Positions 3,811-55,697 of a stretch of DNA of 64,000 nt are shown in pieces (the first letter of the stretch is position 1; each line of letters begins with the position of its first letter). The DNA comes from an uncultured Clostridia bacterium (GTDB lineage Bacteria > Bacillota > Clostridia > Christensenellales > UBA1242). Location of the stretch: positions 3,530-67,529 of the forward strand of contig CALWKA010000003.1 of NCBI GenBank assembly GCA_944381155.1. Direction: 5' to 3'. The notes below the pieces were generated by a model. That model had not been told where the DNA came from. It made no database searches and worked only from the letters and a program-made list of their open reading frames with translations. The translations under genes and the position numbers were made by a program.

Positions 3811-3848
3811 AGTCAGAATTGGTATAGTTGACAATTTTGACTTTTTTT
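3811..3848 (+). terminator. rho-independent terminator after rseP
   Basis: AGTCAGAATTG (3811-3821) pairs with CAATTTTGACT (3832-3842, one G-U), followed by a T7 run. Confidence 0.75.
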
Positions 3849-3856
3849 GATAAAAT
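3828..3856 (+). promoter_or_regulatory. sigma-A promoter nested in the rseP terminator, for the PolC-like gene (leaderless candidate)
   Basis: TTGACA (3828-3833), 17-nt spacer, TAAAAT (3851-3856); ATG 3865 lies 8 nt after the -10 and has no SD. Confidence 0.55.
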
Positions 3857-3864
3857 TCCTAATT

Positions 3865-12087: not shown

Positions 12088-12118
12088 AATCAGTACTATT
12101 GTGGTATTGATTTTTTTT
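12088..12118 (+). terminator. rho-independent terminator after efp
   Basis: AATCAGTAC (12088-12096) pairs with GTATTGATT (12104-12112), then a T8 run; it lies inside the ORF-track 5' extension of spoIIIAA. Confidence 0.7.
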
Positions 12119-12154
12119 GCGTATTTTTTTAGTTTTCAACTAATAGTTTTAAGT

Positions 12155-13536: not shown

Positions 13537-13544
13537 GAGGAATT

Positions 13545-13733
13545 ATGGAAATAATTTTCAAATTGGCAGGCATAGGCTTGATCACTTCTATTGTTAACCA
13601 AATATTGAAATATTGCGGGAAAGAAGAAATTGCTTCTATCACCACTCTCGCAGGTTTAATAATTTGTTTGCTTATGGTGATTGATTTGGTGCGCGATTTG
13701 TTTACGACTGTGCAGTCATTATTTGTTTTTTAG
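13545..13733 (+). CDS. spoIIIAC: stage III sporulation protein AC
   Basis: 62-aa two-TM protein; AGGAGG SD; operon position. Confidence 0.85.
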   Translation: MEIIFKLAGIGLITSIVNQILKYCGKEEIASITTLAGLIICLLMVIDLVRDLFTTVQSLFVF

Positions 13734-13740
13734 GTAAGAT

Positions 13741-14127
13741 ATGACAGAATTATTGAAGATATTGGCAGTAGCATTAATCACGGTTTTTGCCTCTATTTTA
13801 GTCAAGCAAACTCGCCCAGAAATTGCAATGATTATCTCTATTGCCGGTAGCATTTTAATAATTTTAATGATTGTCGACAGCTTGAGTTCTGTCCTATCTT
13901 CTTTCTATGGAATATTTCAAACGACGGGCGTAGATACAACATTATTAACTCCTTTGTTCAAAATCATTGCCATTGGCTATATAACAGAATTTGGAGCAAA
14001 TATCTGTATGGATGCAGGGGCAAGCAGTGTGGCAGACAAGGTGCTATTTGCAGGTAAACTTGTGATTCTGCTCGTGGCACTTCCAATAGTAACAACTGTA
14101 ATAGATATGGTGGTATCATTGTTATGA
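13741..14127 (+). CDS. spoIIIAD: stage III sporulation protein AD
   Basis: 128-aa polytopic membrane protein; operon position. Confidence 0.85.
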   Translation: MTELLKILAVALITVFASILVKQTRPEIAMIISIAGSILIILMIVDSLSSVLSSFYGIFQTTGVDTTLLTPLFKIIAIGYITEFGANICMDAGASSVADKVLFAGKLVILLVALPIVTTVIDMVVSLL

Positions 14128-15338
14128 AATTAAAAAATACGCGATTAAACAAAATTACAATTATATGTATGATATTGCTAATATCATTATTTTCTATATT
14201 TACTCCTATGACAACATTTTGCGTTGACAATACAACGATTGAAATCAGTGAAGATCTAAATGATTCAATAATAGAAGAATTGAACGAAATTGATTTTTCT
14301 GCACTCAATGGGGTAATACAAGAATTTCAAGATAACAACACGAATATTTTTTCAATCGATAACATCAAAAGCAAAGTTTATTCAATCATTTCGGGCGAAA
14401 ATGCAGTAACCTATTCATCCTTTTTTGCGAGCATTTTTTCAATCTTTGTAGAACTGATTGTGAAGTATTTGCCTATGCTTTCATTAATTGTTGCAATAGG
14501 TGTGATAAGTAATTTATTGAATGGAATAAAGAGCAAATTCAACGAAAAGTCAACTAGCGGATTGATTCATTTCGTGTGTTTTCTTGCGGAGGTGGTGCTA
14601 ATGGTAGGAATGGTCAGTTCTATTAGTAAGATAAGTATTTCATCAGTCAATTCTATGGTGTCACAAATGAATGCTATTTTTCCAATTCTTTTAACTTTGA
14701 TGATAGGAATTGGCGCAACTGCAAGTGCGGGCGTATTTCAACCAATCGTGGCAATAATTTCAACTTATGTCGCAGATTTTTTTACATATCTGATACTGCC
14801 ATTATTTATGGTGAGTTTTGTGTTTGGCATTATTAATAATCTTTCTGATAATATCAAATTGGATAAATTCAATTCGTTTATTTCTAGTCTATTCAAATGG
14901 TGCGTCGGTTTGGTGTTTACATTATTTTTTGCAGTGTTCACTATTCAGGGCATATCTGCAGGGAGTTTCGATAGTCTCAGTATAAGGACAACAAAATATA
15001 CTATCAGGAGTTATATCCCTATTATGGGCGGATATTTATCAGACGGAATGGATTTAATTTTGTCTAGTACTATCCTTATCAAAAATGCGGTTGGCTTGGT
15101 GGGAGTGCTTATGATAATTAGTTCAATCATATCACCATTATTAGAAATAGTGGTGTTCAGTTTGTTGCTAAAACTGGTGAGTGCCATTTTGCAACCAATG
15201 GGAAACAACAAAACTTCTAATTTCCTTATGTCTACATCCAAGTCTATAACTATGCTTTCATCTTGTATTATAGCTATAGGATTTATGTATTTAATATCGG
15301 TAGGGTTAGTGATGACTATCTCAAATGTGGTGATGTGA
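14124..15338 (+). CDS. spoIIIAE: stage III sporulation protein AE
   Basis: 404-aa ORF with signal/TM, extracellular region and multi-TM domain; ATGA overlap with AD. Confidence 0.85.
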   Translation: MKLKNTRLNKITIICMILLISLFSIFTPMTTFCVDNTTIEISEDLNDSIIEELNEIDFSALNGVIQEFQDNNTNIFSIDNIKSKVYSIISGENAVTYSSFFASIFSIFVELIVKYLPMLSLIVAIGVISNLLNGIKSKFNEKSTSGLIHFVCFLAEVVLMVGMVSSISKISISSVNSMVSQMNAIFPILLTLMIGIGATASAGVFQPIVAIISTYVADFFTYLILPLFMVSFVFGIINNLSDNIKLDKFNSFISSLFKWCVGLVFTLFFAVFTIQGISAGSFDSLSIRTTKYTIRSYIPIMGGYLSDGMDLILSSTILIKNAVGLVGVLMIISSIISPLLEIVVFSLLLKLVSAILQPMGNNKTSNFLMSTSKSITMLSSCIIAIGFMYLISVGLVMTISNVVM

Positions 15339-31417: not shown

Positions 31418-33978
31418 GTGAACGAAAGATAAACAAACAAGATAAACTATCACCTATGATGGTTCAATATTTAGCGACGAAAGAGCAATACAAAGATTGC
31501 ATATTGTTTTATCGTTTGGGTGATTTTTATGAAATGTTTTATGACGATGCGGTGCTTGCTAGCAAAGAATTGGATTTGACCTTGACAGGCAAAGATTGTG
31601 GCACTAGCGAGCGTGCTCCAATGTGCGGAATACCATATCATGCGTACGAATCTTATGCTCAAAAATTGATAGAAAAAGGGTACAAAGTTGCCATTTGTGA
31701 ACAGATGGAAGAACCTGGTAAAAAATTGGTGAGAAGGGATGTCGTTAGAATTATCACGCCGGGCACTGTGATTGATTCATCGATGCTAAACGAGAGTATA
31801 AATTCCTATATAATGTGTATATACAAAGATAAAAACACAATATCTTATGTTTATAGTGATATTAGTACGGGAGAATTGAATGTTGGCGAATATACAGGTA
31901 AAAATTTCAAAAATTACATTAATGATCAAATAATTCGCGTTATGCCGTCAGAAATTATATGCAATAGTGAGATGAAAGATATTTCAAACGATTTGCCGTG
32001 TGTGCAATCAAATGACAAATTCAAGTTCAATTTATATTATGACTGGGCTTTCAACTATTCAAATTGTCAAACGGCAGTTTTGAAACAATATAATATTGAA
32101 TCTATTAAAGGATATGATTTTGATTCTAAATATTGCATAATAGCTGTAGGTGCACTGCTACAATATTTTTTGGAAACTCAAAAGCGAGAGCTTAAACATT
32201 TGAAAATGCCTAAACTAATTCGTGATGAGCAATTTATGTATATTGATACCAACACTAGAAGAAATCTTGAAATAGAAACTACTATGAGAGAAAATTCTAG
32301 ATATGGTAGTTTGCTTTGGGTGATTGATAGCACTTGTACTAGTGGTGGTTCACGAATGTTACGAAATTGGTTAAGGCAACCACTTCAAGATAAAGATAAA
32401 ATAAACAGGCGTTTAAACGCGGTGGAAGCATTATTTTCAGATGCTTTGATGCGCGCAGATTTGAAGAATACATTATCAAAAGTTCAAGACATTGAAAGGC
32501 TTGTGGGGAAAATCTCTTATGGCAATTTCACCCCTAAAGATTGTATTGCACTAGCTACATCTCTATCTCAAACCCCTGATTTAAAAAAGATTTTGATGCG
32601 ATCAAATGATCAAAATATTAAAATTTTAGCATCCAAATTGGTTGATACATCTGAAATTTCAAATTTGATATTCAATACAATATCAGATACTCCGCCAGCC
32701 ATTATGAAAGATGGTGGATATATAAAATCGGGCTTTAATGAATCGCTTGACAGATTGCGAAACTTAAAAAGTAATGCAGAAGACTATATTCTCAAATTGC
32801 AAGCACGAGAAAGAGAAGCTACAGGAATCAAAAATTTAAAAATTGGTTACAACAAAGTTTTTGGTTATTACATTGAAGTTAGCAAAATGTATAATGATTT
32901 AGTTCCATTTAACTATATTAGGAAGCAAACCATTTCAAACAATGAAAGATATATCACAGAAGAATTGAAAAAATTTGAAGAAGAAGTATTGACCAGTCAC
33001 GAAGAAGCTTTGAAATTGGAAGAAAAAATATTTTCAAATCTTAAAGCACAATTATTGCAGAACACAGATGTGATGCAAGATATTGCTATAGCAATTTCTA
33101 CGATTGATTGTTTATATTCGTTGAGTGTAGTAGCGGTGGAAAATGATTATACCAAGCCTAATATCACAGACGGAAAACAGATTAATATAGTGGAAGGTAG
33201 GCATCCAGTGGTAGAAAAGATGATCAAAGGATCAGATTTTATACCAAATGATTGTAGATTGAATGATACCGATCAACGCACAATCATTTTGACAGGTCCT
33301 AATATGGCAGGTAAATCTACATATATGCGTCAAGTGGCATTAATTACATATCTATCGCACATTGGCAGTTTTGTGCCAGCAAAGAGCGCGGATATTTGTA
33401 TTGTTGATAGAATTTTCACTCGTATTGGTGCTAGCGACGATTTGGCAGTTGGACAATCAACCTTTATGGTAGAGATGATTGAAGTTGCAAACATTTTAAA
33501 TTTTTGTACAAATAATAGTTTGATTATATTAGACGAAGTGGGTAGGGGAACATCTACATTTGATGGATTATCTATTGCTTGGGCAGTGGTGGAATATTTA
33601 TCAAAAAAATTGAAAGCTAAAACATTATTTGCCACCCATTATCACGAATTGATGCAACTCGAAGGGTTATATGACGGAGTTAAAAACTTTTGTATTTCAA
33701 TCAAAGAAATAGGCGGGAAATTGGTATTTTTGCGCAAAATTATGCGTGGCAGTGCTACCAAAAGCTACGGAATTGAAGTGGCAAGTTTGGCAGGATTGCC
33801 TGACGAAATAATTAATAGGGCAAAAGAGTTGATGAAAGAATTTGAAAGCGAAAAAATGGATAACAATGCTCAAGTCGAGAGTGAGATTATAGATACTTTG
33901 CGTGAAATCGATATCAATAAATTATCTCCAATGGTTGCCTTTGACACACTTGCTCATCTAATTGATTTGGTTAAATAA
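31414..33978 (+). CDS. mutS: DNA mismatch repair protein MutS
   Basis: TPMM.QY, Walker A GPNMAGKST, DE.GRGTST, TH.HEL motifs; ATGA overlap with miaB. Confidence 0.96.
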   Translation: MSERKINKQDKLSPMMVQYLATKEQYKDCILFYRLGDFYEMFYDDAVLASKELDLTLTGKDCGTSERAPMCGIPYHAYESYAQKLIEKGYKVAICEQMEEPGKKLVRRDVVRIITPGTVIDSSMLNESINSYIMCIYKDKNTISYVYSDISTGELNVGEYTGKNFKNYINDQIIRVMPSEIICNSEMKDISNDLPCVQSNDKFKFNLYYDWAFNYSNCQTAVLKQYNIESIKGYDFDSKYCIIAVGALLQYFLETQKRELKHLKMPKLIRDEQFMYIDTNTRRNLEIETTMRENSRYGSLLWVIDSTCTSGGSRMLRNWLRQPLQDKDKINRRLNAVEALFSDALMRADLKNTLSKVQDIERLVGKISYGNFTPKDCIALATSLSQTPDLKKILMRSNDQNIKILASKLVDTSEISNLIFNTISDTPPAIMKDGGYIKSGFNESLDRLRNLKSNAEDYILKLQAREREATGIKNLKIGYNKVFGYYIEVSKMYNDLVPFNYIRKQTISNNERYITEELKKFEEEVLTSHEEALKLEEKIFSNLKAQLLQNTDVMQDIAIAISTIDCLYSLSVVAVENDYTKPNITDGKQINIVEGRHPVVEKMIKGSDFIPNDCRLNDTDQRTIILTGPNMAGKSTYMRQVALITYLSHIGSFVPAKSADICIVDRIFTRIGASDDLAVGQSTFMVEMIEVANILNFCTNNSLIILDEVGRGTSTFDGLSIAWAVVEYLSKKLKAKTLFATHYHELMQLEGLYDGVKNFCISIKEIGGKLVFLRKIMRGSATKSYGIEVASLAGLPDEIINRAKELMKEFESEKMDNNAQVESEIIDTLREIDINKLSPMVAFDTLAHLIDLVK

Positions 33979-38962: not shown

Positions 38963-39175
38963 TGTGGATTGATGTGGAGTAATGTAAAAATTTATATCCA
39001 TATCTTTTCGCAAAACTCTTCTTTTGCGAAAAGATATGTGAAAACTTGGTAAAATTCTTGTGGAAATCATATAATTTATCCACCGATACGATTTTATAAT
39101 CGTTTGTTTGACATATTATGACAAACTATATGTTTAGTTGTCCACATATAGTTGCGTTTGTTTCTAATATACACA
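38963..39175. promoter_or_regulatory. cluster of DnaA-box-like 9-mers
   Basis: Boxes compared with TTATNCACA. Minus-oriented: 38963-38971 (CAATCCACA), 38973-38981 (TACTCCACA), 39059-39067 (ATTTCCACA). Plus-oriented: 39076-39084 TTATCCACC, 39138-39146 TTGTCCACA, 39167-39175 ATATACACA. Confidence 0.4.
38999..39038. repeat. perfect 17-6-17 palindrome (candidate tyrosine-recombinase core / dif-like site)
   Basis: CATATCTTTTCGCAAAA (38999-39015), CTCTTC spacer, TTTTGCGAAAAGATATG (39022-39038). The arms match the 21-bp inverted repeats at 39557 and 41986 in 14 of 16 nt. Confidence 0.9.
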
Positions 39176-39556: not shown

Positions 39557-39577
39557 ATATCTTTGCGTAAAAAACTA
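39557..39577 (+). repeat. left 21-bp inverted repeat (IR-L)
   Basis: ATATCTTTGCGTAAAAAACTA; its exact reverse complement is at 41986-42006. Confidence 0.95.
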
Positions 39578-39671: not shown

Positions 39672-40217
39672 TTACAATTCTAGCGTATCATCTTCAGTAT
39701 TTTTCGATTCTTTAGCCCTATATTCTTTCCTTTCTTTTTTGGAAAATTCTGAAAATGGTTCAACAATTTTTTTAGTTTTAGCATTTGGATTATTATAGTT
39801 TAATATTACTTCTTCCAAAGAATTTTTATTATCAAAAGAAAATCCATATTTTGTCAATTTTTTGTGCTCTTTGATAATTGTTTTTATTCTTTCTATTCCC
39901 CCACTCTTTTTGAATTCTTTGTACGCATTATGTGAAATTCCATATTTATTCAATGTTTGAGATAATCTATTTTCACCCATAATAGACAATGCAAATTGAG
40001 CAATCAATACTGGAAGACAAAACAAAAGTGCGACAAATGGATGACTAAAAATTGTTAAAATAGAAAATCCGCCGACAATAATTGCCAATGGAATATATTT
40101 TACCAAAGAAATGAATTTTTCGCGAGAAATAATATCTTTGTACATATTATAATCATTTTCATCTATCTCTTTGACATTTGTTTTATTGTATAGTGCATCA
40201 TATATATTTTTATCCAT
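39672..40217 (-). CDS. hypothetical two-TM membrane protein (181 aa)
   Basis: AAAGGA SD, own promoter and terminator; two adjacent hydrophobic helices and a Lys-rich C-terminal tail; no recognisable family. Confidence 0.6.
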   Translation of the reverse strand: MDKNIYDALYNKTNVKEIDENDYNMYKDIISREKFISLVKYIPLAIIVGGFSILTIFSHPFVALLFCLPVLIAQFALSIMGENRLSQTLNKYGISHNAYKEFKKSGGIERIKTIIKEHKKLTKYGFSFDNKNSLEEVILNYNNPNAKTKKIVEPFSEFSKKERKEYRAKESKNTEDDTLEL

Positions 40218-40243
40218 ATAACAATCCTTTGTTTATGAGTTTA

Positions 40244-40272
40244 AGTTTATCACGGAAAGTTTATATTGTCAA
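40244..40272 (-). promoter_or_regulatory. sigma-A promoter of the 181-aa gene
   Basis: On the minus strand TTGACA (40272-40267), 17-nt spacer, TAAACT (40249-40244). Confidence 0.5.
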
Positions 40273-40278
40273 TACGCA

Positions 40279-40312
40279 TAAAAAAATTAGGTCATAATGT
40301 CTATGACCTAAT
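40279..40312 (-). terminator. rho-independent terminator of serS
   Basis: 10-bp stem ATTAGGTCAT/ATGACCTAAT (40286-40295 and 40303-40312), followed by T7 on the minus strand. Confidence 0.8.
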
Positions 40313-40374
40313 CAAAAACAAAATGCTAAATTTTCATTAAATAATGCAATTTTTTTATTATAATCATCATATTA

Positions 40375-41661
40375 TTATTTTTTTGGTTTAATGACCTTTG
40401 TACCACCCATATATTGCCACAATACTTTAGGAATCGTGACTGAACCATCTTTTTGAAGGTGATTTTCAACGAATGCAATTAACATTCTAGGTGGTGCTAC
40501 AACGGTATTGTTTAGAGTATGAGCAAATTTATTGCCTTTATCTGTTTTATATCTAATGCCCAATCTTCTAGCCTGTGCATCTGTTAGATTGCTACAAGAA
40601 CAAACTTCAAAATACCTTTTTTGTCTAGGACTCCAGGCTTCGACATCAAGACTTCGATATTTCAAATCTGCCAAGTCGCCCGAACAACACACGAGTGTCC
40701 TTACCGGGATTTCCATAGACACAAACAATTCTACTGAATAATTCCACATTTTATTGTACCAATCTTCGCTTTCTTCAGGTTTGCAAATTACAATCATTTC
40801 TTGTTTTTCAAACTGATGAATACGATAAATTCCGCGTTCTTCCAAGCCGTGAGCGCCCTTTTCCTTTCTAAAACAAGGACTATACGATGTTAAAGTTATA
40901 GGCAATTTTTCTTCAGGTATGATAGTATTCATAAAACGACCAATCATTGAATGTTCACTAGTACCAATTAGATATAAATCTTCACCTTCAATCTTGTACA
41001 TCATATTGTCCATTTCTTCAAAACTCATCACACCTTTTACTACATCGCTACGAATCATATAAGGTGGAATTACATAAGTAAAACCTTTATTTATCATAAA
41101 ATCGCGCGCGTAAGCAAGAATTGCGCTGTGAAGTCTGGCAATATCTCCTGTGAGATAATAGAAACCTTGTCCAGAAGTTCTTCTCGCACTATCTATGTCC
41201 AACCCGTTTAAATTTTCAAGGATATCAGTGTGATAAGGAATTTCAAAATCAGGCACTTTTGGTTCCAAAAATGTTTTACCTTGCACATTAAATCTATCAT
41301 CTTCTCCTATAGGAACATCATCTGCAATAATATTTGGTATGCTCATCATAGCTTGTTTAATTTTGCTGTCAAGGTCAGCGACTTCTTTTTCAATAACATC
41401 AATACGCTCATTATTTTCAACAACTTGCGCTTTAATTTTATTAGCTTCATCAATTTGCTTTGATTTCATTAATGCGCCAATTTGTTGCGACAAAACATTG
41501 CGTTTAGCACGCAATTCGTCGCCTTCTTGTTTTAAGACGCGGACTTCAGAATCCATTTTAAGCACATCATCAACTAAATGAAGTTTGTGATTTTGGAATT
41601 TCTTTTTTATGTTTTGCTTTACTAAATCTGGGTTTGTTCTAATCAAATTAATATCAATCAT
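40375..41661 (-). CDS. serS: serine--tRNA ligase
   Basis: N-terminal coiled-coil arm, class II motifs (FRKE, GTSEH, R.L.AF.EN.Q..DG); ATG 41661 follows a GGAGAA SD. The ORF track starts 33 nt upstream. Confidence 0.95.
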   Translation of the reverse strand: MIDINLIRTNPDLVKQNIKKKFQNHKLHLVDDVLKMDSEVRVLKQEGDELRAKRNVLSQQIGALMKSKQIDEANKIKAQVVENNERIDVIEKEVADLDSKIKQAMMSIPNIIADDVPIGEDDRFNVQGKTFLEPKVPDFEIPYHTDILENLNGLDIDSARRTSGQGFYYLTGDIARLHSAILAYARDFMINKGFTYVIPPYMIRSDVVKGVMSFEEMDNMMYKIEGEDLYLIGTSEHSMIGRFMNTIIPEEKLPITLTSYSPCFRKEKGAHGLEERGIYRIHQFEKQEMIVICKPEESEDWYNKMWNYSVELFVSMEIPVRTLVCCSGDLADLKYRSLDVEAWSPRQKRYFEVCSCSNLTDAQARRLGIRYKTDKGNKFAHTLNNTVVAPPRMLIAFVENHLQKDGSVTIPKVLWQYMGGTKVIKPKK

Positions 41662-41677
41662 AATTTCTCCTTTTAAA

Positions 41678-41910
41678 TAAAAAATATCACCCACAAAAAA
41701 TACAATTTAGAGGTGATATTTACCACTGTGCCACTCTATTTGAGCGCTAAACGCCCCACTCATTATTTGCAAATTGTGCTATGCAATCAGCCTCGCATTA
41801 CCGAGTGTCTCGGGGGTAGACGCATAAAATTTCAGTGATTTGCTTTCACCAACCGCAAACTCTCTCGCACCTAGATAATATGCTAGTCCCTATCATCGAC
41901 ATATTAAACT
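41678..41910 (-). promoter_or_regulatory. T-box riboswitch leader (Ser, UCU specifier) controlling serS
   Basis: On the minus strand: K-turn GA motifs, GAGAGAG bulge, GGTGAAAG distal loop, specifier GCG-UCU-A. The T-box sequence GAGTGGCACAGTGGTA overlaps the 5' arm of the terminator ATATCACC...GGTGATAT + T6. Confidence 0.85.
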
Positions 41911-41985: not shown

Positions 41986-42006
41986 TAGTTTTTTACGCAA
42001 AGATAT
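41986..42006 (-). repeat. right 21-bp inverted repeat (IR-R)
   Basis: The plus strand reads TAGTTTTTTACGCAAAGATAT, the exact reverse complement of 39557-39577. Confidence 0.95.
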
Positions 42007-42014
42007 GATATAAT
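42006..42014 (+). promoter_or_regulatory. extended -10 promoter of the recombinase gene, abutting IR-R
   Basis: TGaTATAAT; the T of TG is the last base of IR-R. An AGAGGA SD and ATG 42034 follow. Confidence 0.45.
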
Positions 42015-42033: not shown

Positions 42034-43080
42034 ATGTCAAATAATTATTATCTTGATAGAAACAGAAAAAATATGCGTAAATTGAATGAGTTATTGACCG
42101 AACTACCGCCATTTTGTAGTACATTTTTCATCGCAATTCAAGACACCACTACCCCACTTACGCGATTGAATTATGCAAGTGATTTGAAAACATTTTTTAA
42201 CTATTTAGTGACATACGAAACGATATGTTTTAATAAAAAGATAATAGATATTACAACTAATGTTATTGACAAAATTGATTCGTATCTAATTGAACGATAT
42301 ATGGCGTATTTGTCTTATTATGACAAAGATAATGGCGAAGTTATCACAAATGGTGAGCGTGGGAAATTGCGCAAATTGTCTAGCCTTAGAGCATTTTTCA
42401 AATATTTATTCAACAAAGATATGATCAAAGCCAATGTTGTTTCAAAAGTTTCTTCTCCTAAATTACACGAAAAACCAATCATTCGTTTAGAGCCACAAGA
42501 GACAGCTGAATTGCTCTACTCTTGTGATACATTGTCTGGATTTTCGAACCATCAGCAAAAATACAATGAAAAATTCAGAATTCGAGATAACGCGATTTTA
42601 TCTCTGTTTTTGACAACAGGTATTCGTGTTAGTGAATGTGTGGGATTAAATGTAGATGATATAAATTTTAATCTCAACTCTTTCCGTGTTACGCGAAAAG
42701 GTGGAAATCAAGTTATTTTATATTTTGGTGAAGAAACAGCGGATATTTTGAAAGAATATTTGCACTATCGTGAAAGTTTAAATATACCAAAAGAAGAACG
42801 CGCACTTTTCATTTCTAGTCAGGGCAAGCGTTTAGGCGTGCGTGCAATTGAATATTTAGTAAAAAAGTATGCTAAAGTTGCAACGCCGTTGAAAAACATT
42901 ACCCCACATAAATTGCGTTCAACATACGGCACAAATCTGTATAATCAAACAAAAGACATATATATTGTGGCAGAAGTATTAGGTCATAAAGATGTGAATA
43001 CCACCAAAAAACACTATGCAGCAATCAGTGAAGATATCAGGAAATCTGTTGCAGGCAAAGTAAAATTGAAACAAGATTAA
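42034..43080 (+). CDS. tyrosine site-specific recombinase, XerS-like (Xer/phage-integrase superfamily)
   Basis: Catalytic set present: GIRVSE (R), VTRKGGN (K), HKLRST (HxxR), LGHKDVNTTKKHY (H, Y). At 348 aa, its size and the VTRKGG / TPHKLR blocks resemble streptococcal XerS as I remember it. Confidence 0.8.
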   Translation: MSNNYYLDRNRKNMRKLNELLTELPPFCSTFFIAIQDTTTPLTRLNYASDLKTFFNYLVTYETICFNKKIIDITTNVIDKIDSYLIERYMAYLSYYDKDNGEVITNGERGKLRKLSSLRAFFKYLFNKDMIKANVVSKVSSPKLHEKPIIRLEPQETAELLYSCDTLSGFSNHQQKYNEKFRIRDNAILSLFLTTGIRVSECVGLNVDDINFNLNSFRVTRKGGNQVILYFGEETADILKEYLHYRESLNIPKEERALFISSQGKRLGVRAIEYLVKKYAKVATPLKNITPHKLRSTYGTNLYNQTKDIYIVAEVLGHKDVNTTKKHYAAISEDIRKSVAGKVKLKQD

Positions 43081-43108
43081 ATACACTTTATATTGTGTAT
43101 TTATTTTA
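43079..43108 (+). terminator. rho-independent terminator after the recombinase gene
   Basis: AAATACAC (43079-43086) pairs with GTGTATTT (43095-43102), then a T-rich tail; overlaps the stop codon. Confidence 0.6.
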
Positions 43109-43272
43109 TATAATTACACTATATTTAGATATCTAAAAAATAGTATTATATTATTAATCAGTTAACAATAAGATATATGAAGTTAAATTTATTCAATGGT
43201 AAAATAATTAAAAATAATAGTTAAATAGTATTTTAATTTATAATTATAAAAAAATAAAAATTATAAAAATAT

Positions 43273-43297
43273 CGAACAAATGTTTGACAAATGTTTA
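43273..43297 (+). promoter_or_regulatory. LexA (Cheo) boxes overlapping the lexA promoter
   Basis: CGAACAAATGTTTG (43273-43286) matches CGAAC-N4-GTTYG; a second degenerate copy TGACAAATGTTT follows at 43285-43296. Confidence 0.75.
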
Positions 43298-43313
43298 AAA
43301 ATTTTGTTATACT
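43284..43313 (+). promoter_or_regulatory. sigma-A promoter of lexA
   Basis: TTGACA (43284-43289), 18-nt spacer, TGtTATACT (TATACT 43308-43313). Confidence 0.6.
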
Positions 43314-43331
43314 ATGTTAGGAGTTGAATAA

Positions 43332-43919
43332 ATGGACAAAACATTAGAAACTTACAACTTTATTGTTTCATATTTAGAAGATAAAAAATACCCCCCTACC
43401 ATTAGAGAAATTTGTGATAGACTAAATTTAGATTCTACATCAAGCGTGGTTTATCATTTGAAAAAATTAGAAAAAATGGGTAAAATAACCCGCTCTGTGA
43501 ACAAAAATCGCGCCATAGAATTAGTTGATAAGTCTGCAAATAACAATATATCATTGCCTGTAGTTGGACTCATCGCCGCTGGTCAACCAATTTTAGCTGA
43601 AGAAACTTTGATGGACAAAGTCATTGTGTCTGAAAATTTATTTTCTGGCACAAATATGTTTGTATTGAAAGTTAAAGGCGATAGTATGATAAATATAGGC
43701 ATATATAATGATGATTTGGTCGTGATATCAAAACAGTCAGTCGCAAACAATGGCGAAATTGTCGCTTGTTTAATAGATAATGAAGCAACGGTTAAAAGGT
43801 ATTATAAAGAAAATGGTTATTTTCGTTTACAGCCCGAAAACTCGTTTATGCGCCCTATCATTACTGATCACATTGATATTCTAGGGAAAGTGGTAGGATT
43901 AATTAGAAATAAATTTTAA
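43332..43919 (+). CDS. lexA: LexA repressor
   Basis: wHTH N-terminus (PPTIREI), AAG cleavage site (LIAAGQP), S24 peptidase Ser/Lys (VKGDSM ... VKRY). Confidence 0.93.
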   Translation: MDKTLETYNFIVSYLEDKKYPPTIREICDRLNLDSTSSVVYHLKKLEKMGKITRSVNKNRAIELVDKSANNNISLPVVGLIAAGQPILAEETLMDKVIVSENLFSGTNMFVLKVKGDSMINIGIYNDDLVVISKQSVANNGEIVACLIDNEATVKRYYKENGYFRLQPENSFMRPIITDHIDILGKVVGLIRNKF

Positions 43920-43922
43920 AAG

Positions 43923-43951
43923 ATTTATGCTAGATTTGGCATAAATTTTTT
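43923..43951 (+). terminator. rho-independent terminator after lexA
   Basis: ATTTATGC (43923-43930) pairs with GCATAAAT (43939-43946), then a T run. Confidence 0.7.
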
Positions 43952-43958
43952 ATTTCTA

Positions 43959-43987
43959 TTGACTAAATTGGCTTTTTACTATATAAT
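43959..43987 (+). promoter_or_regulatory. sigma-A promoter of the PadR-ABC operon
   Basis: TTGACT (43959-43964), 17-nt spacer, TATAAT (43982-43987); an AAGGGG SD precedes ATG 44010. Confidence 0.6.
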
Positions 43988-44009
43988 TAATATATTATTA
44001 AGGGGTATT

Positions 44010-45344
44010 ATGAGAACCGCAGATTTAATTCCATTAATTTTATTAGAATTAAATGAGTGTGACAAATATGGTTTTGAGTTGACTAAATCTATTGAAACAA
44101 AATCTAAAGGAAAAATCATAATTAAACAGCCCACTCTTTACACAATTTTGAAAAAGTTAGAGAAATCTAAATTTATTTCTTCGTATTGGCAAGATAGCGA
44201 TATTGGAGGCAAGCGCCATTATTATAGGATCACAGAAAATGGCAAAATGCAAGTCGCTACACTTCCCGATTATGAGAAATTGATTGAGAATATAGTTTTT
44301 GACGCCTCTGGAGATCAATTGTCATTCAAAGACGATTTTGAGGGTGACCAAAATTTTTCAACTGCAGAATCGGATGTTGATCAGCAGGCAAATAAAACTG
44401 ATGTTTCTAATGCAAATAATTATTCTTCTGTTTCAATTATGGATAGTATTATTGATGAACCATCTTCTTCAAATGATAAAATTAAGATAGAAGATACTGC
44501 CTCGCCTACCCTAAAAGAATCGATTATACCATCAAGTGAAGTCTTTGATGGAAATCATATTGACAATGCTACAGAAATGGAAATTAATCAATTGAATACG
44601 CAAGTTTTAAAAAATGATAAAATTAATGTAGAAGAAAAATTTGCAGAAAATAAAGATGTTTTAGAGTTTACCAAAAAGGAATCTACGATAATATCTGATG
44701 AATATAAAAAACAATTTACTGCAAACGCATCAAATGAAAGTACTAGAAATTCTACAAACATCACCAATCAAAATGAATCGTCAACTGCCACTCCTGTGTC
44801 ACTAGATTTTGACAATGACAATACATATATAAGCAATGAGCCATACAAAAAAATTAAATATGTTGATTTTGTAGACTTTAAAACGAATGCAAATTATATT
44901 TATGCAAAAAATACTGCTAGGAATATGAAAAACAGAGTATTTGCTTCTACCCTATATCTATTGGTGATGATCATCATTTCATCCGTTGTAGTTTCGTTTC
45001 AATCTAACACAAGACCGATTTATTATGTATCATTTTTAATCGCATTATTTATACTAATATTTTATCCTTCGATTTATGCTTGTTTTTATGATAGATTTAG
45101 GATGCATCTTCAAAACAATAAGTACGATCCCGATTTGAAAAAACAATTATATATATCTCTTGCAATTGAATTTTTGATTATTGTTGTGTGCGTAATCGTC
45201 AATGTGAATATTGGGAACAATACATTAGATAGTATGTTTAACATAAACAATTTTGCTAATCTCTATGCTCCAATATTATTATCTACTGTAATGTTTGCTG
45301 ATATTATATTTGCATATTTGTTTATCAAAAAATCTAAAAAATAG
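44010..45344 (+). CDS. PadR-family winged-helix regulator fused to a low-complexity linker and a four-TM C-terminal domain
   Basis: N-terminus LILLEL.E.DKYGFEL...I......I.QPTLYTILKKLE...I..YW......G.RHYY.IT..G is PadR-like. Residues about 110-330 are Asn/Ser/Asp/Glu-rich, followed by four hydrophobic helices. Confidence 0.75.
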   Translation: MRTADLIPLILLELNECDKYGFELTKSIETKSKGKIIIKQPTLYTILKKLEKSKFISSYWQDSDIGGKRHYYRITENGKMQVATLPDYEKLIENIVFDASGDQLSFKDDFEGDQNFSTAESDVDQQANKTDVSNANNYSSVSIMDSIIDEPSSSNDKIKIEDTASPTLKESIIPSSEVFDGNHIDNATEMEINQLNTQVLKNDKINVEEKFAENKDVLEFTKKESTIISDEYKKQFTANASNESTRNSTNITNQNESSTATPVSLDFDNDNTYISNEPYKKIKYVDFVDFKTNANYIYAKNTARNMKNRVFASTLYLLVMIIISSVVVSFQSNTRPIYYVSFLIALFILIFYPSIYACFYDRFRMHLQNNKYDPDLKKQLYISLAIEFLIIVVCVIVNVNIGNNTLDSMFNINNFANLYAPILLSTVMFADIIFAYLFIKKSKK

Positions 45345-45352
45345 GAGTTTTA

Positions 45353-46285
45353 ATGATACCTGTATTGAGTGTGAATAATTTGACCAAAATTTATGGGATA
45401 AAAAAGGTTGTAAACAATGTATCCTTCTCTCTTTTCCCTGGTCAAATTTTTGGATTCGTTGGACCAAATGGTGCTGGTAAATCTACTACAATACGAATGA
45501 TCACCGGACTCACTCCGATCACTAAAGGTAACATAAGAATATGCGGTTATAGTATCGAACGAAGTTTTGAACGCGCTATTTCAAATGTTGGCGCTGTGGT
45601 AGAAATTCCTCAACTATACCCTTACTTGTCAGGATTAAAAAATCTTAAATTGTTTGCGAGTTTTTATGGGAAATCTGCCACAAAAAGGATTCCAGAGATT
45701 GTAAAACTTGTCGGTATGGAAAACAGAATAAAAGACAAATTATCCACTTATTCATTGGGTATGAAACAAAGATTGGGAATTGCTCAAGCACTTTTAAACA
45801 AGCCTAAATTGCTGATTTTGGATGAACCCACTAACGGACTTGATCCTAATGGTATCGTTGAGATGCGAAACATTCTTAAAGCTTTGGCAGAAAAAGAAAA
45901 AATTGCGATTATTATATCGAGTCACAATCTTGCAGAATTAGAGCATACATGCGATGTCATTGGTTTGATAAACAATGGCAGAATTATTGAATATAAAACA
46001 ATGAAAGAAATCAGTAGCATAGTTGAATCAAGACAGCGAATACAATTCATTTGCAACTACCCTAATTATGCTGCGCTAATTTTGAAGCAAAAATATAATA
46101 TAACTTCAAAAGTCGTTGGAAATTCTGTGATATTACCATTAAAAGAAGCGAATATCGCAGTAGTGGTATCTTATTTGACATATAAAAAAGTTAAGATATA
46201 TGGCTTGAAAAAAATTCAAAAATCGCTGGAAGAATTATATTTTGAATTGCTGAATAGTGAGCGTCCGTCCACAAGTATAGTTTAG
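45353..46285 (+). CDS. ABC transporter ATP-binding protein (ABC-2/DrrA-like with a C-terminal extension)
   Basis: Walker A GPNGAGKST, signature LSLGMKQRL, Walker B LLILDEPT, H-loop SSH. Confidence 0.9.
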   Translation: MIPVLSVNNLTKIYGIKKVVNNVSFSLFPGQIFGFVGPNGAGKSTTIRMITGLTPITKGNIRICGYSIERSFERAISNVGAVVEIPQLYPYLSGLKNLKLFASFYGKSATKRIPEIVKLVGMENRIKDKLSTYSLGMKQRLGIAQALLNKPKLLILDEPTNGLDPNGIVEMRNILKALAEKEKIAIIISSHNLAELEHTCDVIGLINNGRIIEYKTMKEISSIVESRQRIQFICNYPNYAALILKQKYNITSKVVGNSVILPLKEANIAVVVSYLTYKKVKIYGLKKIQKSLEELYFELLNSERPSTSIV

Positions 46286-46292
46286 GAGAGTT

Positions 46293-48044
46293 ATGTTTAA
46301 AGTTGTTTCTGCAGAGATGAAAAAAATGGTGTCCAAGCCAGGCATATATGTACTGGCTATTTTGCTTGCACTAATTTTAGTACTCGGCGTTTTTATATAT
46401 AAACCGACTGTATATCAAGACACTTCGCAAAATATACAAGGCGAAACTGTGTTGGATATCTACAATCAATTTGATGGTGGTTCAAATGCGGGGATAAAAT
46501 ATTCAGTGGATGACAATATCGTAAAAGCATCTATACCTGTAACATTATACAGAATTAATGGCAGTTCATACAAAGATTATATAAATGAATTATATAGTAA
46601 ATTTGAAACAAACTTTTCTGCTTTTAGAAATTGCGCATACGATTCATCTAGTTCAAACACTATCAATACAAATAGAACCAATTTATTGCAAAGTTTAACC
46701 GATCTGAACTATGCAATAAACACAGGCATAAACAATGCACAAAATGGTGCCTACACCATCCTAACCACCAATTCGAATTTTGACACTTTTGAAGAATATT
46801 ACGACTATGTTTATGACAATTTTGATGTTTCAGTGAACGAATCGAATAGGACAATCATTGCAGAGATGTGCAAAGAATACGAAGATAATTTCAAAGAAAA
46901 ATTTGTTGGATCAATAAATAATTTCAAATACCCTACCATTAGTGACGATTTTATCAAAGACTATTCGTCAAATGCTGAAGGTACGAAGTATTTTATTATA
47001 AATTCCAGAATGCAGGATATACTTGCAGATATATATGAGTTGAGAGATTCGGCTCAATCTGATTCGGATACAAATCAAAGCATCAGTTCAAAAGATGAGA
47101 TGACAAGGCTTATCAATCTATATGTCAACACGGCAAGCACCTTTATCAATCTGGTAAATTATGAATTGTTGTCAAATGCCTTTTCGGTAGTCAACACAAA
47201 CGATCAGCTAGATCTTATGTATCTAAATAATCAATCAGAATACAATTCTAATTCATTATTAATAAGATATACATACCTATTTGAAAATGAAAAAACAGAA
47301 AATGATTTTGCTCACCCACTTACCATAGGAGTCACATCAAATCACGAAATTAATGCTTATGACTATGCATATTTTATATTAAAGTTATTTTCGTTTATTA
47401 TAATAGTTTATGCAGTGATGACCGCTTGCCATTCAATTGCAGGAGAGATAAAAGAAGGTTCAATGAGATATCTCGCAATTCGTCCTGTGGGCAGAACAAA
47501 ACTATTTTTCGGAAAACTACTAGCCGTTTTAATGATGTCAATTATTATGATTGTATTCTCTGCAATTGTTGCTTTGTGTGTGGGCGGGACAGTTTACGGA
47601 TTTGATTCATTGACTATTCTCACAATATTCAATGGTTCTACAGCTATCACTATGCATCCTATTGTAATGTTGTTGATTTATCTAGTAAGCCTGTTCTTTG
47701 AATTGGCTGTATATGCATCAATCGCGATGTTATTATCTTGTCTATTCAAATCAGATCTTTTCGCTGTGACAATTATGTTGGTGCTTTATCTATTGAATAC
47801 ATTACTGCCTGTATTTGCGGGTGGTATAAATAGTTGGCTGGCATACTACCCTTTCTCACACATATCTATATATTCACTCTTTGGAAGTTCAAATTATGCA
47901 TTGTCAGACAATTTCTTAAATATTTTATTGGGAGCAAAAGTTTATGCCGGCACGAATATTGGACTAACGGTATGTGTTATATTGCTGTTTATAATAATTG
48001 CTAATGTTATTGGTTCAATAATATTCAAGAAAAAAGAGTTATAA
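46293..48044 (+). CDS. ABC-2 type permease with a large extracytoplasmic domain
   Basis: TM1, then about 330 aa of hydrophilic Asn/Ser/Tyr-rich domain, then 5 C-terminal TM helices; translationally adjacent to the ATPase. Confidence 0.7.
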   Translation: MFKVVSAEMKKMVSKPGIYVLAILLALILVLGVFIYKPTVYQDTSQNIQGETVLDIYNQFDGGSNAGIKYSVDDNIVKASIPVTLYRINGSSYKDYINELYSKFETNFSAFRNCAYDSSSSNTINTNRTNLLQSLTDLNYAINTGINNAQNGAYTILTTNSNFDTFEEYYDYVYDNFDVSVNESNRTIIAEMCKEYEDNFKEKFVGSINNFKYPTISDDFIKDYSSNAEGTKYFIINSRMQDILADIYELRDSAQSDSDTNQSISSKDEMTRLINLYVNTASTFINLVNYELLSNAFSVVNTNDQLDLMYLNNQSEYNSNSLLIRYTYLFENEKTENDFAHPLTIGVTSNHEINAYDYAYFILKLFSFIIIVYAVMTACHSIAGEIKEGSMRYLAIRPVGRTKLFFGKLLAVLMMSIIMIVFSAIVALCVGGTVYGFDSLTILTIFNGSTAITMHPIVMLLIYLVSLFFELAVYASIAMLLSCLFKSDLFAVTIMLVLYLLNTLLPVFAGGINSWLAYYPFSHISIYSLFGSSNYALSDNFLNILLGAKVYAGTNIGLTVCVILLFIIIANVIGSIIFKKKEL

Positions 48045-53142: not shown

Positions 53143-53793
53143 TTAAGGAACAAGATTTAATGTTTTTCCTAAAATTGATCCATTCAGATATACTTCAGGA
53201 ACTTTCCCCACAATAATACTTTCGGCTAACAATACTTGATTTGATGTATGTATATCATACGATTTAATAGGAAGTACTATGTTCACATGCACATTAACAT
53301 ATAAATATAATGTGTGTTTAGTCATATTGATGCCCACCGATTCAAATAAACTTTCAAAATTACTACTTACCGCACCTATTGGAGTCAATTTCAAATTAAT
53401 GCTAGGACCTCTGCCTATTAAAAAAGGTATACCTGAAAATGTACCCAATTTTATATCCAAGCCATTTTTCCCTAATGTTTGCATTTCAATTTGTGCTTGC
53501 TCAACAATTTCACGAGATATACTATTTATTTCAAATTGGTTAGCGGTAAATGATGTGATTTCACCGCTGGCAGTATAACTAATATCTATCAACGAATCAT
53601 ATTTTAATGATTGATTAATAACATTACTCACCGCTCTATTTACCGCTTCTTCGGTTATTGCACGCGTTTGAGCATAAGTATAACTTTTCACAACAGGACT
53701 AATGACAAAAAAATAATAAATTAGAAACAATATTAAAAAGATAACGAATGTTAGTTTTAGTATCAACATTTTTTTGCTATACGATCTTTTCAT
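53143..53793 (-). CDS. yunB: sporulation protein YunB
   Basis: N-terminal TM; YunB-like blocks (A.....A.NRAV..VI, GINMTKH.LY, AESIIVGKVPEVY). Confidence 0.7.
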   Translation of the reverse strand: MKRSYSKKMLILKLTFVIFLILFLIYYFFVISPVVKSYTYAQTRAITEEAVNRAVSNVINQSLKYDSLIDISYTASGEITSFTANQFEINSISREIVEQAQIEMQTLGKNGLDIKLGTFSGIPFLIGRGPSINLKLTPIGAVSSNFESLFESVGINMTKHTLYLYVNVHVNIVLPIKSYDIHTSNQVLLAESIIVGKVPEVYLNGSILGKTLNLVP

Positions 53794-53932
53794 ATTATAA
53801 TTTATTATTGTATTATTTAATTATATTGATTTCGACTAAATAATCTATAAATAGCAACAAATAGCAACTTCTGTGTTATGATTTATTTAATTCTATATCA
53901 ACTTGTGATTATTATATTTTCGTTTATATATT

Positions 53933-53962
53933 ATTGTATTGATTGTTATTGTATTGATTGTT
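53933..53962 (+). repeat. perfect 15-bp tandem duplication
   Basis: ATTGTATTGATTGTT x2 in the yunB-spoVAE intergenic region. Confidence 0.9.
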
Positions 53963-54126
53963 TGCTTATACTTTGAAAAAAATTGAGATATAAATATTTT
54001 AATTTTCTAACTAAAAGTATCAATTATCGTTTTGTATTTATATATTGAATATAACTTTTTTATCTAAATGGTATTAATAAAATTAATCAACTATTACAAG
54101 CCGAATATTTTAATTCAATTTAATTG

Positions 54127-54504
54127 TCAGTGCCCACCGCGTTTTGATTTGCTACTAAATATGAGCGCAAATATAAACGATGCAAAAATTGCCATAGCAA
54201 TTCCGCCCGCAGAAGCTGTCAATCCCCCTGTAAATATACCGATTATACCTTCTTCTTTCGCTGCCATAATTGCACCGCGCGCAAGATTAGCTCCGAAACC
54301 TATTATTGGAACAGTCGCACCCGCTTTTGCAAATTCTTTGAATGGAGCATATATATTGAAAACTTCTAATATCATACCGATGATTAAAAACAAAACTAAA
54401 ATTCTGGCAGTTGTTATTTTTGTTCTAATTACCAAAATTTGTGCTAAAAAGCAGATAAATCCGCCTACCAAAAAAGATATTACATAGTCCCATATTGATA
54501 TCAT
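54127..54504 (-). CDS. spoVAE: stage V sporulation protein AE (SpoVAEB-type)
   Basis: 125-aa polytopic protein; GATVPI.GFG and GG.TA..GG motifs; follows spoVAD. Confidence 0.85.
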   Translation of the reverse strand: MISIWDYVISFLVGGFICFLAQILVIRTKITTARILVLFLIIGMILEVFNIYAPFKEFAKAGATVPIIGFGANLARGAIMAAKEEGIIGIFTGGLTASAGGIAMAIFASFIFALIFSSKSKRGGH

Positions 54505-54584
54505 ATTTTATTCCTTTTAAATTTGTAGTTATGAATTAAATTAATTAATTTCAGTCAATTGTTAAAAAAAATCACATTTTATCG

Positions 54585-55697
54585 CTATTTTTCAATCTTG
54601 GAAGATTTAGTAGTTTTGTGTTTGTTTGATTTTATTTTATTTGATTTGTTTAGTTTTGATTTTACTTTTTTAGAATTATTGTTTGAATTGGCATTTGATT
54701 TGTTTGAATCGACATACACTAATTCTACTGCGTGAGCTATGCTAGGGATGGTATCTCCTTGTTGCGAAGTGGTAGTGCTCATCAGTGCACCTGTAGACAC
54801 TAATAAGACGCGTTTAAAGTCACCTTTTTTCATCTTGTATAAAACATACGAATTCAAAACGCTAGCACTACATCCTGCGCCACTTCCACCCATAAACACG
54901 CGTTCAGTTTTGTCGTATATCATACATCCGCAATCTGAATAATTTTGACCTAATATTATATTTTCGTGTTCCATTAGATCAATCAATACTTCGCTACCTA
55001 ATTTCCCGAGATCGCCAGTCAAAATGATATCATAATCTGAAACTTTTAAATCCATATTTTCAAGATGAGCTTTTATCGTGGACGATGCAGCGGGCGCCAT
55101 AGCGCAACCCATATTATTCACATCTGAAATACCATAATCTATAACTTTTCCAAAAGTGACAGCATTGATGCGAATTTTACTCGGTATATTTGATATGATA
55201 CTAGCACCGCCACCAGTAATGGTCCATTGTGCAGTTGGCGGGCGTTGATTGCCAAGTTCTAGTGGAAACCTATATTGACGCTCTGCACTGCTAAAATGTG
55301 TGCAAGTTGAGGCAACTATATTTTTTGCTATCTTATTGTCTACAAATATACCACCAATTGCTAAAGATTCTGCCATAGTAGCGCAAGCGGAATACAATCC
55401 TATGAAAGGCAAATTAAGTTCGCGTGCAGCAAATGACGAACTAACGATCTGATTAAGCAAATCTCCACCAATGAAAAAATCAATATCGGTCATTTTTAAT
55501 CCCGCTTTATCAACTGCATTGATAATTAAATCTAATAGCAGTTTGCGCTCCGCTTTTTCAAATGTTTTTTCTTTCAAAGTATCATCCTGAATGATATAAT
55601 CAAAATAATCTTTTAATGGACCTTTTCCTTCTAATGGTCCCACCATACTAAATCCTTCAAGGATATAAACATTGTTTTTAAATTTATAAGTTTGCAT
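54585..55697 (-). CDS. spoVAD: stage V sporulation protein AD, with a Lys/Asn/Ser-rich C-terminal tail
   Basis: Thiolase-fold SpoVAD sequence (GGDLLNQ, YSACATM); about 35 extra C-terminal residues of KSN repeats. Confidence 0.88.
   Translation of the reverse strand: MQTYKFKNNVYILEGFSMVGPLEGKGPLKDYFDYIIQDDTLKEKTFEKAERKLLLDLIINAVDKAGLKMTDIDFFIGGDLLNQIVSSSFAARELNLPFIGLYSACATMAESLAIGGIFVDNKIAKNIVASTCTHFSSAERQYRFPLELGNQRPPTAQWTITGGGASIISNIPSKIRINAVTFGKVIDYGISDVNNMGCAMAPAASSTIKAHLENMDLKVSDYDIILTGDLGKLGSEVLIDLMEHENIILGQNYSDCGCMIYDKTERVFMGGSGAGCSASVLNSYVLYKMKKGDFKRVLLVSTGALMSTTTSQQGDTIPSIAHAVELVYVDSNKSNANSNNNSKKVKSKLNKSNKIKSNKHKTTKSSKIEK

Follow-up and report, generated by a model that had tools for sequence, protein, structure and literature searches.

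Several forms of the Xer/dif system are known, namely XerCD, XerS, XerH, XerA and XerL, and the XDS sites of Bacillus subtilis resemble half of a dif site. The difSL site of XerS, 31 bp long, has unequal imperfect arms on the two sides of an 11-bp central region and is an immediate neighbour of xerS (PMC5357621). In Legionella, the single-recombinase XerL/dif system was found through a mobile element with a dif mimic near the terminus (PMC9765430). Mobile elements exploiting Xer recombinases (IMEX) include integrase-less single-stranded DNA (ssDNA) phages whose dif mimic has one good and one degenerate arm, and which integrate at the dif site of the host (PMC7062461, PMC5357621); gokushoviruses, which have no integrase, integrate at dif in E. 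coli only when XerC and XerD are present and the phage dif mimic has both of its arms (PMC7062461). XerD of B. subtilis, when at XDS sites, unloads SMC complexes at the terminus, as stated in a passage of PMC11894783 that cites Karaboja 2021. Here, a 64-kb stretch of DNA (the window) from Candidatus Onthoplasma (Christensenellales), whose genomes are of about 0.8-0.9 Mb, was analysed around a palindrome, called P, and a nearby gene for a Xer-type recombinase. P is likely to serve the chromosome as a dif-type recombination site for a Xer system with a single recombinase, this number being read from the 64-kb window.

A unique palindrome and its arm motif

An earlier note on this DNA had described P as a perfect 17-6-17 palindrome, and its letters are as reported there (left arm CATATCTTTTCGCAAAA, spacer CTCTTC, right arm TTTTGCGAAAAGATATG):

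38999..39038, no strand: P, probable dif-like core site, a perfect 17-6-17 inverted repeat
38999-39015: left arm of P
39016-39021: asymmetric central region of P, CTCTTC
39022-39038: right arm of P

P is the sole perfect inverted repeat in the window with arms of at least 12 nt and a 6-nt spacer. In general, a Xer/dif core site has two inverted arms around a centre of 6-8 bp and occurs once per replicon; P has such a geometry and is single within the 64-kb window. Its arms of 17 nt are beyond chance, as the longest arm around a 6-nt spacer was of 8-11 nt in 40 dinucleotide-preserving shuffles. The four copies of one 16-nt word that had been claimed were also recovered, as the word ATATCTTTKCGYAAAA has four matches with zero mismatches to the pattern:

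39000-39015, plus strand: copy of ATATCTTTKCGYAAAA in the left arm of P
39022-39037, minus strand: copy in the right arm of P
39557-39572, plus strand: third copy
41991-42006, minus strand: fourth copy

The last two copies belong to a pair of 21-bp inverted repeats, with which the arms of P agree at 14 of 16 positions, just as had been counted before. When up to two mismatches were allowed, six matches were found versus 0.94 expected, a number that was reached in none of 100 shuffles. The two additional matches, each with two mismatches, overlap one another in a single palindrome (33724-33743) inside the mutS coding region. This mutS-internal word, TTTTGCGCAAAA, is similar to the arm core and is found at the same place in related loci, and it looks like coding conservation.

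A Xer-family recombinase gene linked to P

The recombinase gene begins 3.0 kb from P:

42034..43080, plus strand: 348-amino acid (aa) tyrosine recombinase of the Xer family (XerS-like), from NCBIfam and Pfam matches and motifs

Motif positions assign the full RKHRHY catalytic set to R198, K222, H292, R295, H318 and Y328. The best NCBIfam match is XerS (NF003462), with 183.8 bits over model positions 4-356 of 360, and the XerC, XerA and XerD models follow closely, the four scores spanning 158-184 bits; a Phage_integrase match was found in Pfam. Among solved structures, the nearest is E. coli XerD (6e-21), XerA is also matched, and XerH (5jjv) gave a weaker match (E = 7e-9). Judged by these matches, the protein is a member of the Xer clade with a complete catalytic set. 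The previous label of XerS-like holds for its length and its best NCBIfam match, but the score stays below the XerS equivalog cut-off of 267 bits. No second tyrosine recombinase was detectable in the 64-kb window, nor was a B. subtilis-type 28-bp dif found there at up to three mismatches, in agreement with the failure of the earlier note to find a canonical Firmicute dif.

Conservation of P in Onthoplasma

The recombinase was found, with 73-95% identity, in 35 genomes, each standing for one species of Candidatus Onthoplasma or of related uncultured Clostridia, and 26 of these loci were long enough to include the place of P. The palindrome was present in all 26, at 2.3-4.1 kb upstream of the recombinase gene, so that the conservation beside orthologous recombinases that had been proposed as a check was indeed observed. 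The arms are near-perfect in 25 of them, locus L005 having an imperfect right arm, and complementarity is perfect over 12-17 nt in 24 of the 26. Three arm variants exist (TTTTCGCAAAA, TTTGCGCAAAA and TTTGCGTAAAA), each of them mirrored in the opposite arm. The spacer is of 6 bp in every locus and differs between species (CTCTTC, CACTTC, CCCTTC, GCCTTC, CAACAC or CAATAC), none of these forms being self-complementary; this constancy fits the proposal that an asymmetric 6-bp spacer between inverted arms reflects the layout of a tyrosine-recombinase core site.

The gene order is also constant in Onthoplasma: miaA, a methionine-gamma-lyase-like gene (MGL), P, a half site, serS, a second half site, the recombinase, lexA, padR, two abc genes and rnhA. 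In L016 (8236-10900), MGL and miaA follow rnhA in inverted orientation, from which a terminus block of about 9 kb (serS to rnhA) appears to be turned round when compared with the other genomes, one of its breakpoints lying at the palindrome or close to it.

A wider family in Clostridia and metagenomes

Homologues of the recombinase were represented by 757 clusters (50% identity) at E ≤ 1e-30. Most of the best 150 of these 757 representatives are full-length proteins of about 350 aa, and the identities in the matched stretches are 35-79%. Ten representatives were compared with the NCBIfam models, and all ten had XerS as best match with 171-227 bits, below the cut-off in every case; members of the family carry only the annotation "tyrosine-type recombinase/integrase".

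Four distant members from other uncultured Clostridia, including Candidatus Limihabitans stercoravium, with recombinases 54-58% identical, were inspected. All four have a convergent terminus neighbourhood with mutS, mutL, miaA, MGL, thiI, lexA, recA and ftsK, and all four have a palindrome of the type TTCGCAAAA-N6-TTTTGCGAA at 0.4-5.7 kb upstream of the recombinase gene:

First distant palindrome: ACTTCGCAAAA TACAGG TTTTGCGAAGT
Second distant palindrome: TATTCGCAAAA GACAGG TTTTGCGAATA
Third distant palindrome: TATTCGCAAAA CACAAG TTTTGCGAATA
Fourth distant palindrome: TATTCGCAAAA TGCCGA TTTTACGAATA

The arm ATATCTATTCGCAAAA, found in two of these four, differs from the arm in the window at 1 of 16 positions. 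An FtsK gene with a gamma domain lies near the homologous locus L235.

A scan of metagenome contigs that started from DNA, with TTCGCAAAA-N6-TTTTGCGAA as the pattern, gave at least 120 loci, and there were 115 distinct sites among the matches listed. In these 115 sites, complementarity runs 5 positions further at 65-85%, versus a background near 30%, and 62 different outer 5-mers are present. As outer complementarity is kept across so many 5-mers, the arms must have co-evolved symmetrically, many times independently. A recombinase homologue was detected on 26 of the at least 120 loci (most of the 26 being short or truncated), often at 50-500 bp from the palindrome. One metagenome contig, L258, carries two 9-6-9 palindromes of the same family (4119-4142 and 4270-4293), 150 bp apart.

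Therefore, P is not peculiar to the genome of the window and belongs to a large family. The system is common in gut Clostridia and is apparently an undescribed variant of Xer/dif; no description of a P-type site or of a single-recombinase system of Clostridia was found in the literature searched, which is not proof that none exists.

Co-variation of the arms could also be due to base pairing if P were an RNA or DNA hairpin, such as a terminator, a processing site or a small RNA element. The arms do co-vary yet stay complementary, the loop sequence varies, and the predicted DNA hairpin is stable (-16.6 kcal/mol, z = -9.2). Even so, this explanation is hardly credible, as the length of the loop is fixed at 6 across very distant lineages, the arm motif is also conserved in single copies that are unable to pair, and the prophage junctions described below map to the spacer. 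In addition, P lacks a T-run after the stem and was not called as a terminator in the scan, and no Rfam family matched it even at E ≤ 1.

With P taken again as a recombination site, the perfect symmetry of its arms is compatible with each of three possible causes. If one protein reads both arms, a shift in its specificity could select the same change in both. Template switching, a mutational mechanism that corrects quasi-palindromes, could also keep the arms identical. Finally, P might adopt a hairpin or cruciform form, such as the one predicted from its folding.

P lies at the replication terminus

Genes in the window are on the plus strand up to 38732, on the minus strand at 39672-41694, on the plus strand again at 42034-48044 and on the minus strand from 48139, which defines a convergence zone at 39-48 kb. 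The switch of gene orientation claimed for P was confirmed. Cumulative GC skew in the window has its maximum at 38984, 15 bp from P, and within single loci the maximum was at 50 bp or less from P in 14 of 22. The GC skew at third codon positions was between +0.07 and +0.24 (about +0.15) in plus-strand genes to the left of P, dropped at 39 kb and was about 0 in the plus-strand genes at 42-48 kb, as would fit if the latter lay on the other replichore.

The strand of GGGNAGNG switches in the same place. In the pooled counts from 25 loci, plus and minus copies were 42:0 to the left of P and 4:59 to the right, and the flip holds even within the plus-strand genes on the right side. In the earlier note, convergence of skew and polar words on 39.0 kb had been suggested as a check on the complete replicon; at the scale of the window and of the loci compared such a convergence was found, which puts P at the replication terminus. 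Candidate words for guiding a translocase are GGGNAGNG and further G-rich octamers.

Microvirus prophages inserted in P

In two Onthoplasma loci an extra copy of the left arm plus spacer was detected, 5.3 kb to the left of P in L004 and 5.8 kb in L034, with unrelated sequence after the extra copy. The intervening DNA is a prophage in both, and a related fragment was found among viral contigs:

L004, 524-5863: gokushovirus-like Microviridae prophage, inserted in P
L034, 1636-7466: gokushovirus-like Microviridae prophage, inserted in P
L117, IMG/VR contig: gokushovirus-like prophage-plus-host fragment with a layout identical to that of L034

These prophages of 5.3-5.8 kb encode the capsid protein F (E = 4e-172), a scaffold protein like that of Chlamydia phages, ORF5, a pilot protein, a rolling-circle Rep and a cI-like repressor, and no integrase was found among the open reading frames of L004 and L034. 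Alignment of the junctions showed that in attL the host flank is followed by the left arm, the spacer and then a degenerate arm (ACATTCGAAAT or TAATATACAAT), and that attR is made up of a phage-borne left flank, left arm, an identical spacer and the right arm of the host. Identity between prophage and P stops at the border of spacer and right arm, which places the crossover of integration at the central region. The attP of the prophages follows directly after the rep gene, and the arm variant and spacer of each phage are those of its own host species.

The phage copy reaches about 45 bp past the arm and mimics the conserved left flank of P, each of the two prophages having its own version, nearly identical to that of the host in L004 and diverged in L034 with the motifs kept. 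Because this flank is carried by the phage, attR is again a complete site after integration. The junctions of L004 and L034 have the signature of IMEX, and both prophages belong to this class of elements.

When viral contigs were scanned for the 16-nt word of the arms, only chance-like matches were obtained, and a capsid-based scan of viral contigs yielded no free phage genome with a P-type attP, its only find being the prophage-plus-host fragment L117. The prophages in P are evidence for temperate microviruses in Bacillota; they extend dif-targeted lysogeny by integrase-less microviruses to this phylum from Proteobacteria and Bacteroidetes, and identify hosts for gut gokushovirus-like phages. 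To the left of the palindrome in L235 (4250-4277), and directly beside it, lies another element (1-4250) with a rolling-circle Rep and many open reading frames of 37-69 aa. Its far end is outside the locus, and it may represent a second kind of ssDNA element that uses the palindrome.

These insertions could also mean that P is merely the attachment site of microviruses, integrated by a phage function such as nicking of a hairpin by Rep, with no role in dimer resolution in the host. HUH-type Rep proteins do act on hairpins, the hairpin predicted for P is stable, and attP comes immediately after rep. We regard this as very improbable, as P is kept in 23 Onthoplasma loci without a prophage (of the 26 with P, 3 were not scanned on the left, and prophages were seen in L004 and L034 only), a P-type palindrome lies beside the recombinase in distant lineages too, and the promoter of the recombinase gene of the host contains the arm motif as well. 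Moreover, the phages copy the host-specific arm variant and spacer, as Xer-exploiting elements do, and dependence of gokushovirus integration on XerC and XerD has been shown experimentally (PMC7062461).

Solitary half sites and neighbouring genes

Two further copies of the arm motif are found between P and the recombinase gene, 2.4 kb apart, both extending the 16-nt word to the 21-bp inverted repeat ATATCTTTGCGTAAAAAACTA:

39557..39577, plus strand: solitary half site ATATCTTTGCGTAAAAAACTA in left-arm orientation, at the 3' end of the serS transcription unit
41986..42006, minus strand: solitary half site in right-arm orientation, 2 nt before the -10 box of the recombinase promoter, probable operator

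The promoter of the recombinase has a TATAAT -10 box at 42009-42014 and an extended TG at 42006-42007, the extended -10 element being TGATATAAT (42006-42014). Across Onthoplasma, the distal half site is 313-1014 bp to the right of P in all 25 loci measured and the second copy is immediately upstream of the recombinase gene. The word ATCTTTGCGTAAAA that they share hardly varies, also in species whose P has other arms. In nearly all loci, L025, L027 and L028 among them, the -10 box directly adjoins an arm-like motif; in L010, L011, L030 and L031 this motif is a degenerate arm-like copy, and the canonical ATCTTTGCGTAAAA found upstream of the gene points the opposite (plus) way.

As there is no conservation beyond the arm, the half sites would be single binding sites and not full core sites, and most likely they are extra binding sites for the same recombinase. 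For this reason the 21-bp repeats were discarded as recombination partners, having no conserved second arm or spacer. Another candidate, that they are a second full site split by insertion of serS, was also rejected, because some species have a pair at the promoter plus a distal half site. From its position, the promoter-proximal copy is probably an autoregulatory operator for the recombinase, and the distal one (39557) could be a terminus-marking site, by analogy with XerD/XDS of B. subtilis. In some rabbit-gut species, extra ATCTTTGCGTAAAA half sites were seen in L018 (7790-8526), L020 (263-1112), L021 (7909-7967) and L022 (3349-3377), those of L018 and L020 forming pairs on both sides of the palindrome that point away from P.

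The segment between the two repeats and the surroundings contain the following genes:

39672-40217, minus strand: 181-aa membrane protein, between the 21-bp inverted repeats
40375-41694, minus strand: seryl-tRNA synthetase gene serS, between the 21-bp inverted repeats
41706-41905, minus strand: T-box leader of serS, 78.8 bits (Rfam gathering score 93)

Since 78.8 bits is below the gathering score, the leader was missed in the default Rfam scan. To the left of P are mutS, mutL, miaA and MGL, and to the right RNase H, RNase Y and thiI, with lexA, a PadR-like membrane protein and an ABC transporter beyond the recombinase. The sporulation genes SpoIIIAA, SpoIIIAE, YunB and SpoVAD are also present (12101-15338 and 53143-55697 of the window), despite the small reported size of these genomes.

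A DNA-inversion switch of the serS segment, with P as a third partner, would look like the arrangement found here, where 21-bp inverted repeats (39557 and 42006) are separated by 2.4 kb and a tyrosine recombinase is encoded beside them. Such a switch is extremely improbable here and was rejected: the strand of serS relative to the recombinase is constant in 34 of the 34 loci that contain serS, neither a second arm nor a spacer is conserved at the half sites, the upstream canonical half site is in the opposite orientation in four species, and serS, which has a T-box leader of its own, is an essential housekeeping gene.

Could P itself be only a transcriptional operator, bound by a dimeric regulator or by the recombinase acting purely as a repressor? 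Its perfect dyad symmetry is typical of operators, and the arm motif lies between the -35 and -10 boxes of the recombinase promoter, in either orientation upstream of the gene. This is nevertheless very improbable, because no gene starts beside P, which has the 3' end of a plus-strand gene on one side and about 630 bp of non-coding DNA on the other, and a -10-like box on its left flank is without a conserved final T. Two independent prophages lie exactly at the spacer border, with arm and spacer duplicated, which an operator leaves unexplained, and the constant asymmetric 6-bp spacer matches the core sites of tyrosine recombinases.

Conserved flanks of P with DnaA-box-like words

The conservation around P extends beyond its arms, as shown by the following features:

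38963..38984, plus strand: conserved left flank, with DnaA-box-like TGTGGATTG at 38963-38971 and a second, TGTGGAGTA, at 38973-38981
38976-38984, plus strand: GGGNAGTG-like word GGAGTAATG in the left flank, about 25 bp from the arm
39059..39084, no strand: conserved right flank, with inverted DnaA-box-like 9-mers TGTGGAAAT at 39059-39067 and TTATCCACC at 39076-39084
39138..39146, plus strand: further DnaA-box-like 9-mer TTGTCCACA, at offset +120

Words similar to the DnaA box TTATCCACA are found at fixed offsets of -55, +41, +58 and +120 from the centre of P, only in Onthoplasma; the box at -55 keeps its offset in most Onthoplasma species, and the pair in the right flank has a constant 14 bp between its GTGGA and TCCAC cores in 25 aligned loci. 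Within 160 bp of P these words are 28-fold denser than elsewhere in the loci. They are absent from the four distant relatives.

A cluster of this kind suggests an origin of replication, which was rejected for P because the skew changes from plus to minus, genes converge and polar words point toward it. As the left flank is copied by the prophages, it seems to matter for the function of P. On a tentative and rather unlikely reading, the dif core of Onthoplasma would be just the middle part of a larger nucleoprotein unit, conserved over about 190 bp, with the DnaA-box-like words (-55, +41, +58, +120) and the KOPS-like left word as accessory sequences. DnaA or another factor bound to the flanks might then set the timing or direction of recombination at a symmetric site, for example as a topological filter or by coupling it to replication termination, and temperate microviruses would have to mimic the flank to integrate without destroying the dif function of the host. 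The phased flanks copied by phages hint at a type of accessory control not described for chromosomal dif sites.

Proposed function of P

In the mechanism proposed, two monomers of the 348-aa recombinase (42034-43080) would bind the two identical arms, each recognising about 14-17 bp with the core ATCTTTKCGYAAAA. Two P sites on a chromosome dimer would synapse, and strands would be cut and exchanged where the arms border on the asymmetric 6-bp central region, which would give the otherwise symmetric P its direction. In this way the terminus would be the place where the dimer is resolved. Linkage suggests that it is this recombinase which acts on P, and an FtsK/SpoIIIE-type translocase, guided by the polar G-rich words, would presumably control the site. 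The dif-like site of a single Xer recombinase at the terminus proposed in the earlier note is upheld by conservation, the distant palindromes, skew, polar words and prophages; dimer resolution as the biological role is what we infer from them.

Several points weigh against this interpretation. Binding and cutting of P by the recombinase are deduced from the linkage of site and gene, and in metagenomic loci listed with at least 2.5 kb on both sides a recombinase was nearby in 8 of 18. The count of a single recombinase comes from the 64-kb window, and XerC/XerD plus a canonical dif could be encoded elsewhere. Regarding position, a second and slightly lower skew maximum exists near 48 kb, 7-10 kb to the right, where abc and rnhA converge, and 4 of the 22 loci have their maximum at such an alternative point 7-10 kb away; thus, skew by itself locates the terminus with a resolution of about 10 kb. 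Polarity is shared here by all G-rich octamers and is not special to GGGNAGNG, which indicates a compositional switch and not a proven KOPS word, and the conserved synteny of Onthoplasma implies that its loci are not independent witnesses of the position of P. Finally, the arms of P are perfectly symmetric, whereas those of difSL and difH are asymmetric and their asymmetry orders the strand exchanges. A perfectly symmetric dif thus poses a mechanistic question, that of the order of strand exchange with identical arms.

If the assignment is true, a widespread form of Xer/dif would be added in uncultured gut Clostridia, with the 757 protein clusters mentioned above, and in these metagenome-assembled genomes the replication terminus could be recognised by P, as a simple landmark in the sequence.

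Comparison with known systems

With XerS/difSL of streptococci and lactococci, the system described here shares a single recombinase of about 350 aa and a site that is genetically linked to its gene. The resemblance to difSL that had been put forward in the earlier note stands for the arm core, composed of a T-run, CG and an A-run (TTTTGCGAAAA here, TTTCCGAAAA in the left repeat of difSL; PMC5357621). The geometry is different. Instead of unequal arms around an 11-bp centre, P has perfect arms of 14-17 bp with 6 bp between them, and serS separates the site from the gene in Onthoplasma. Judged by the score of the protein, which is below the cut-off, and by the geometry of the site, the P/recombinase pair falls outside XerS/difSL.

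XerH/difH of Helicobacter and Campylobacter also has a single recombinase, of about 355 aa, with a site near the gene and a centre of about 6 bp flanked by A/T runs (difH arms AGTTATGAAAA and AAAAGTTTGA). Unlike P, difH has imperfect arms of 11 and 10 bp, its hosts are Campylobacterota and not Clostridia, and the relation in sequence is weak, the P system being further from XerH than from XerS by sequence. XerC/XerD systems have two paralogous recombinases and a 28-bp dif with two different arms; in the 64-kb window a single recombinase gene was detected, and a dif like that of B. subtilis was not found when up to three mismatches were allowed. The solitary half sites have a layout comparable, by analogy, with that of XerD/XDS of B. 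subtilis, but one of them is better explained as a promoter operator.

The XerL/dif system of Legionellales, compared by description only, was discovered by the same logic as that provided by the prophages in P, although its hosts belong to an unrelated phylum. The closest parallel to these prophages is found in IMEX such as the enterobacterial gokushovirus prophages and CTX-phi, with which those of L004 and L034 share the structure of their junctions; they differ in that their host system has one recombinase and a palindromic dif, and in that the phage copy spans about 45 bp past the arm, with its mimic of the left flank.

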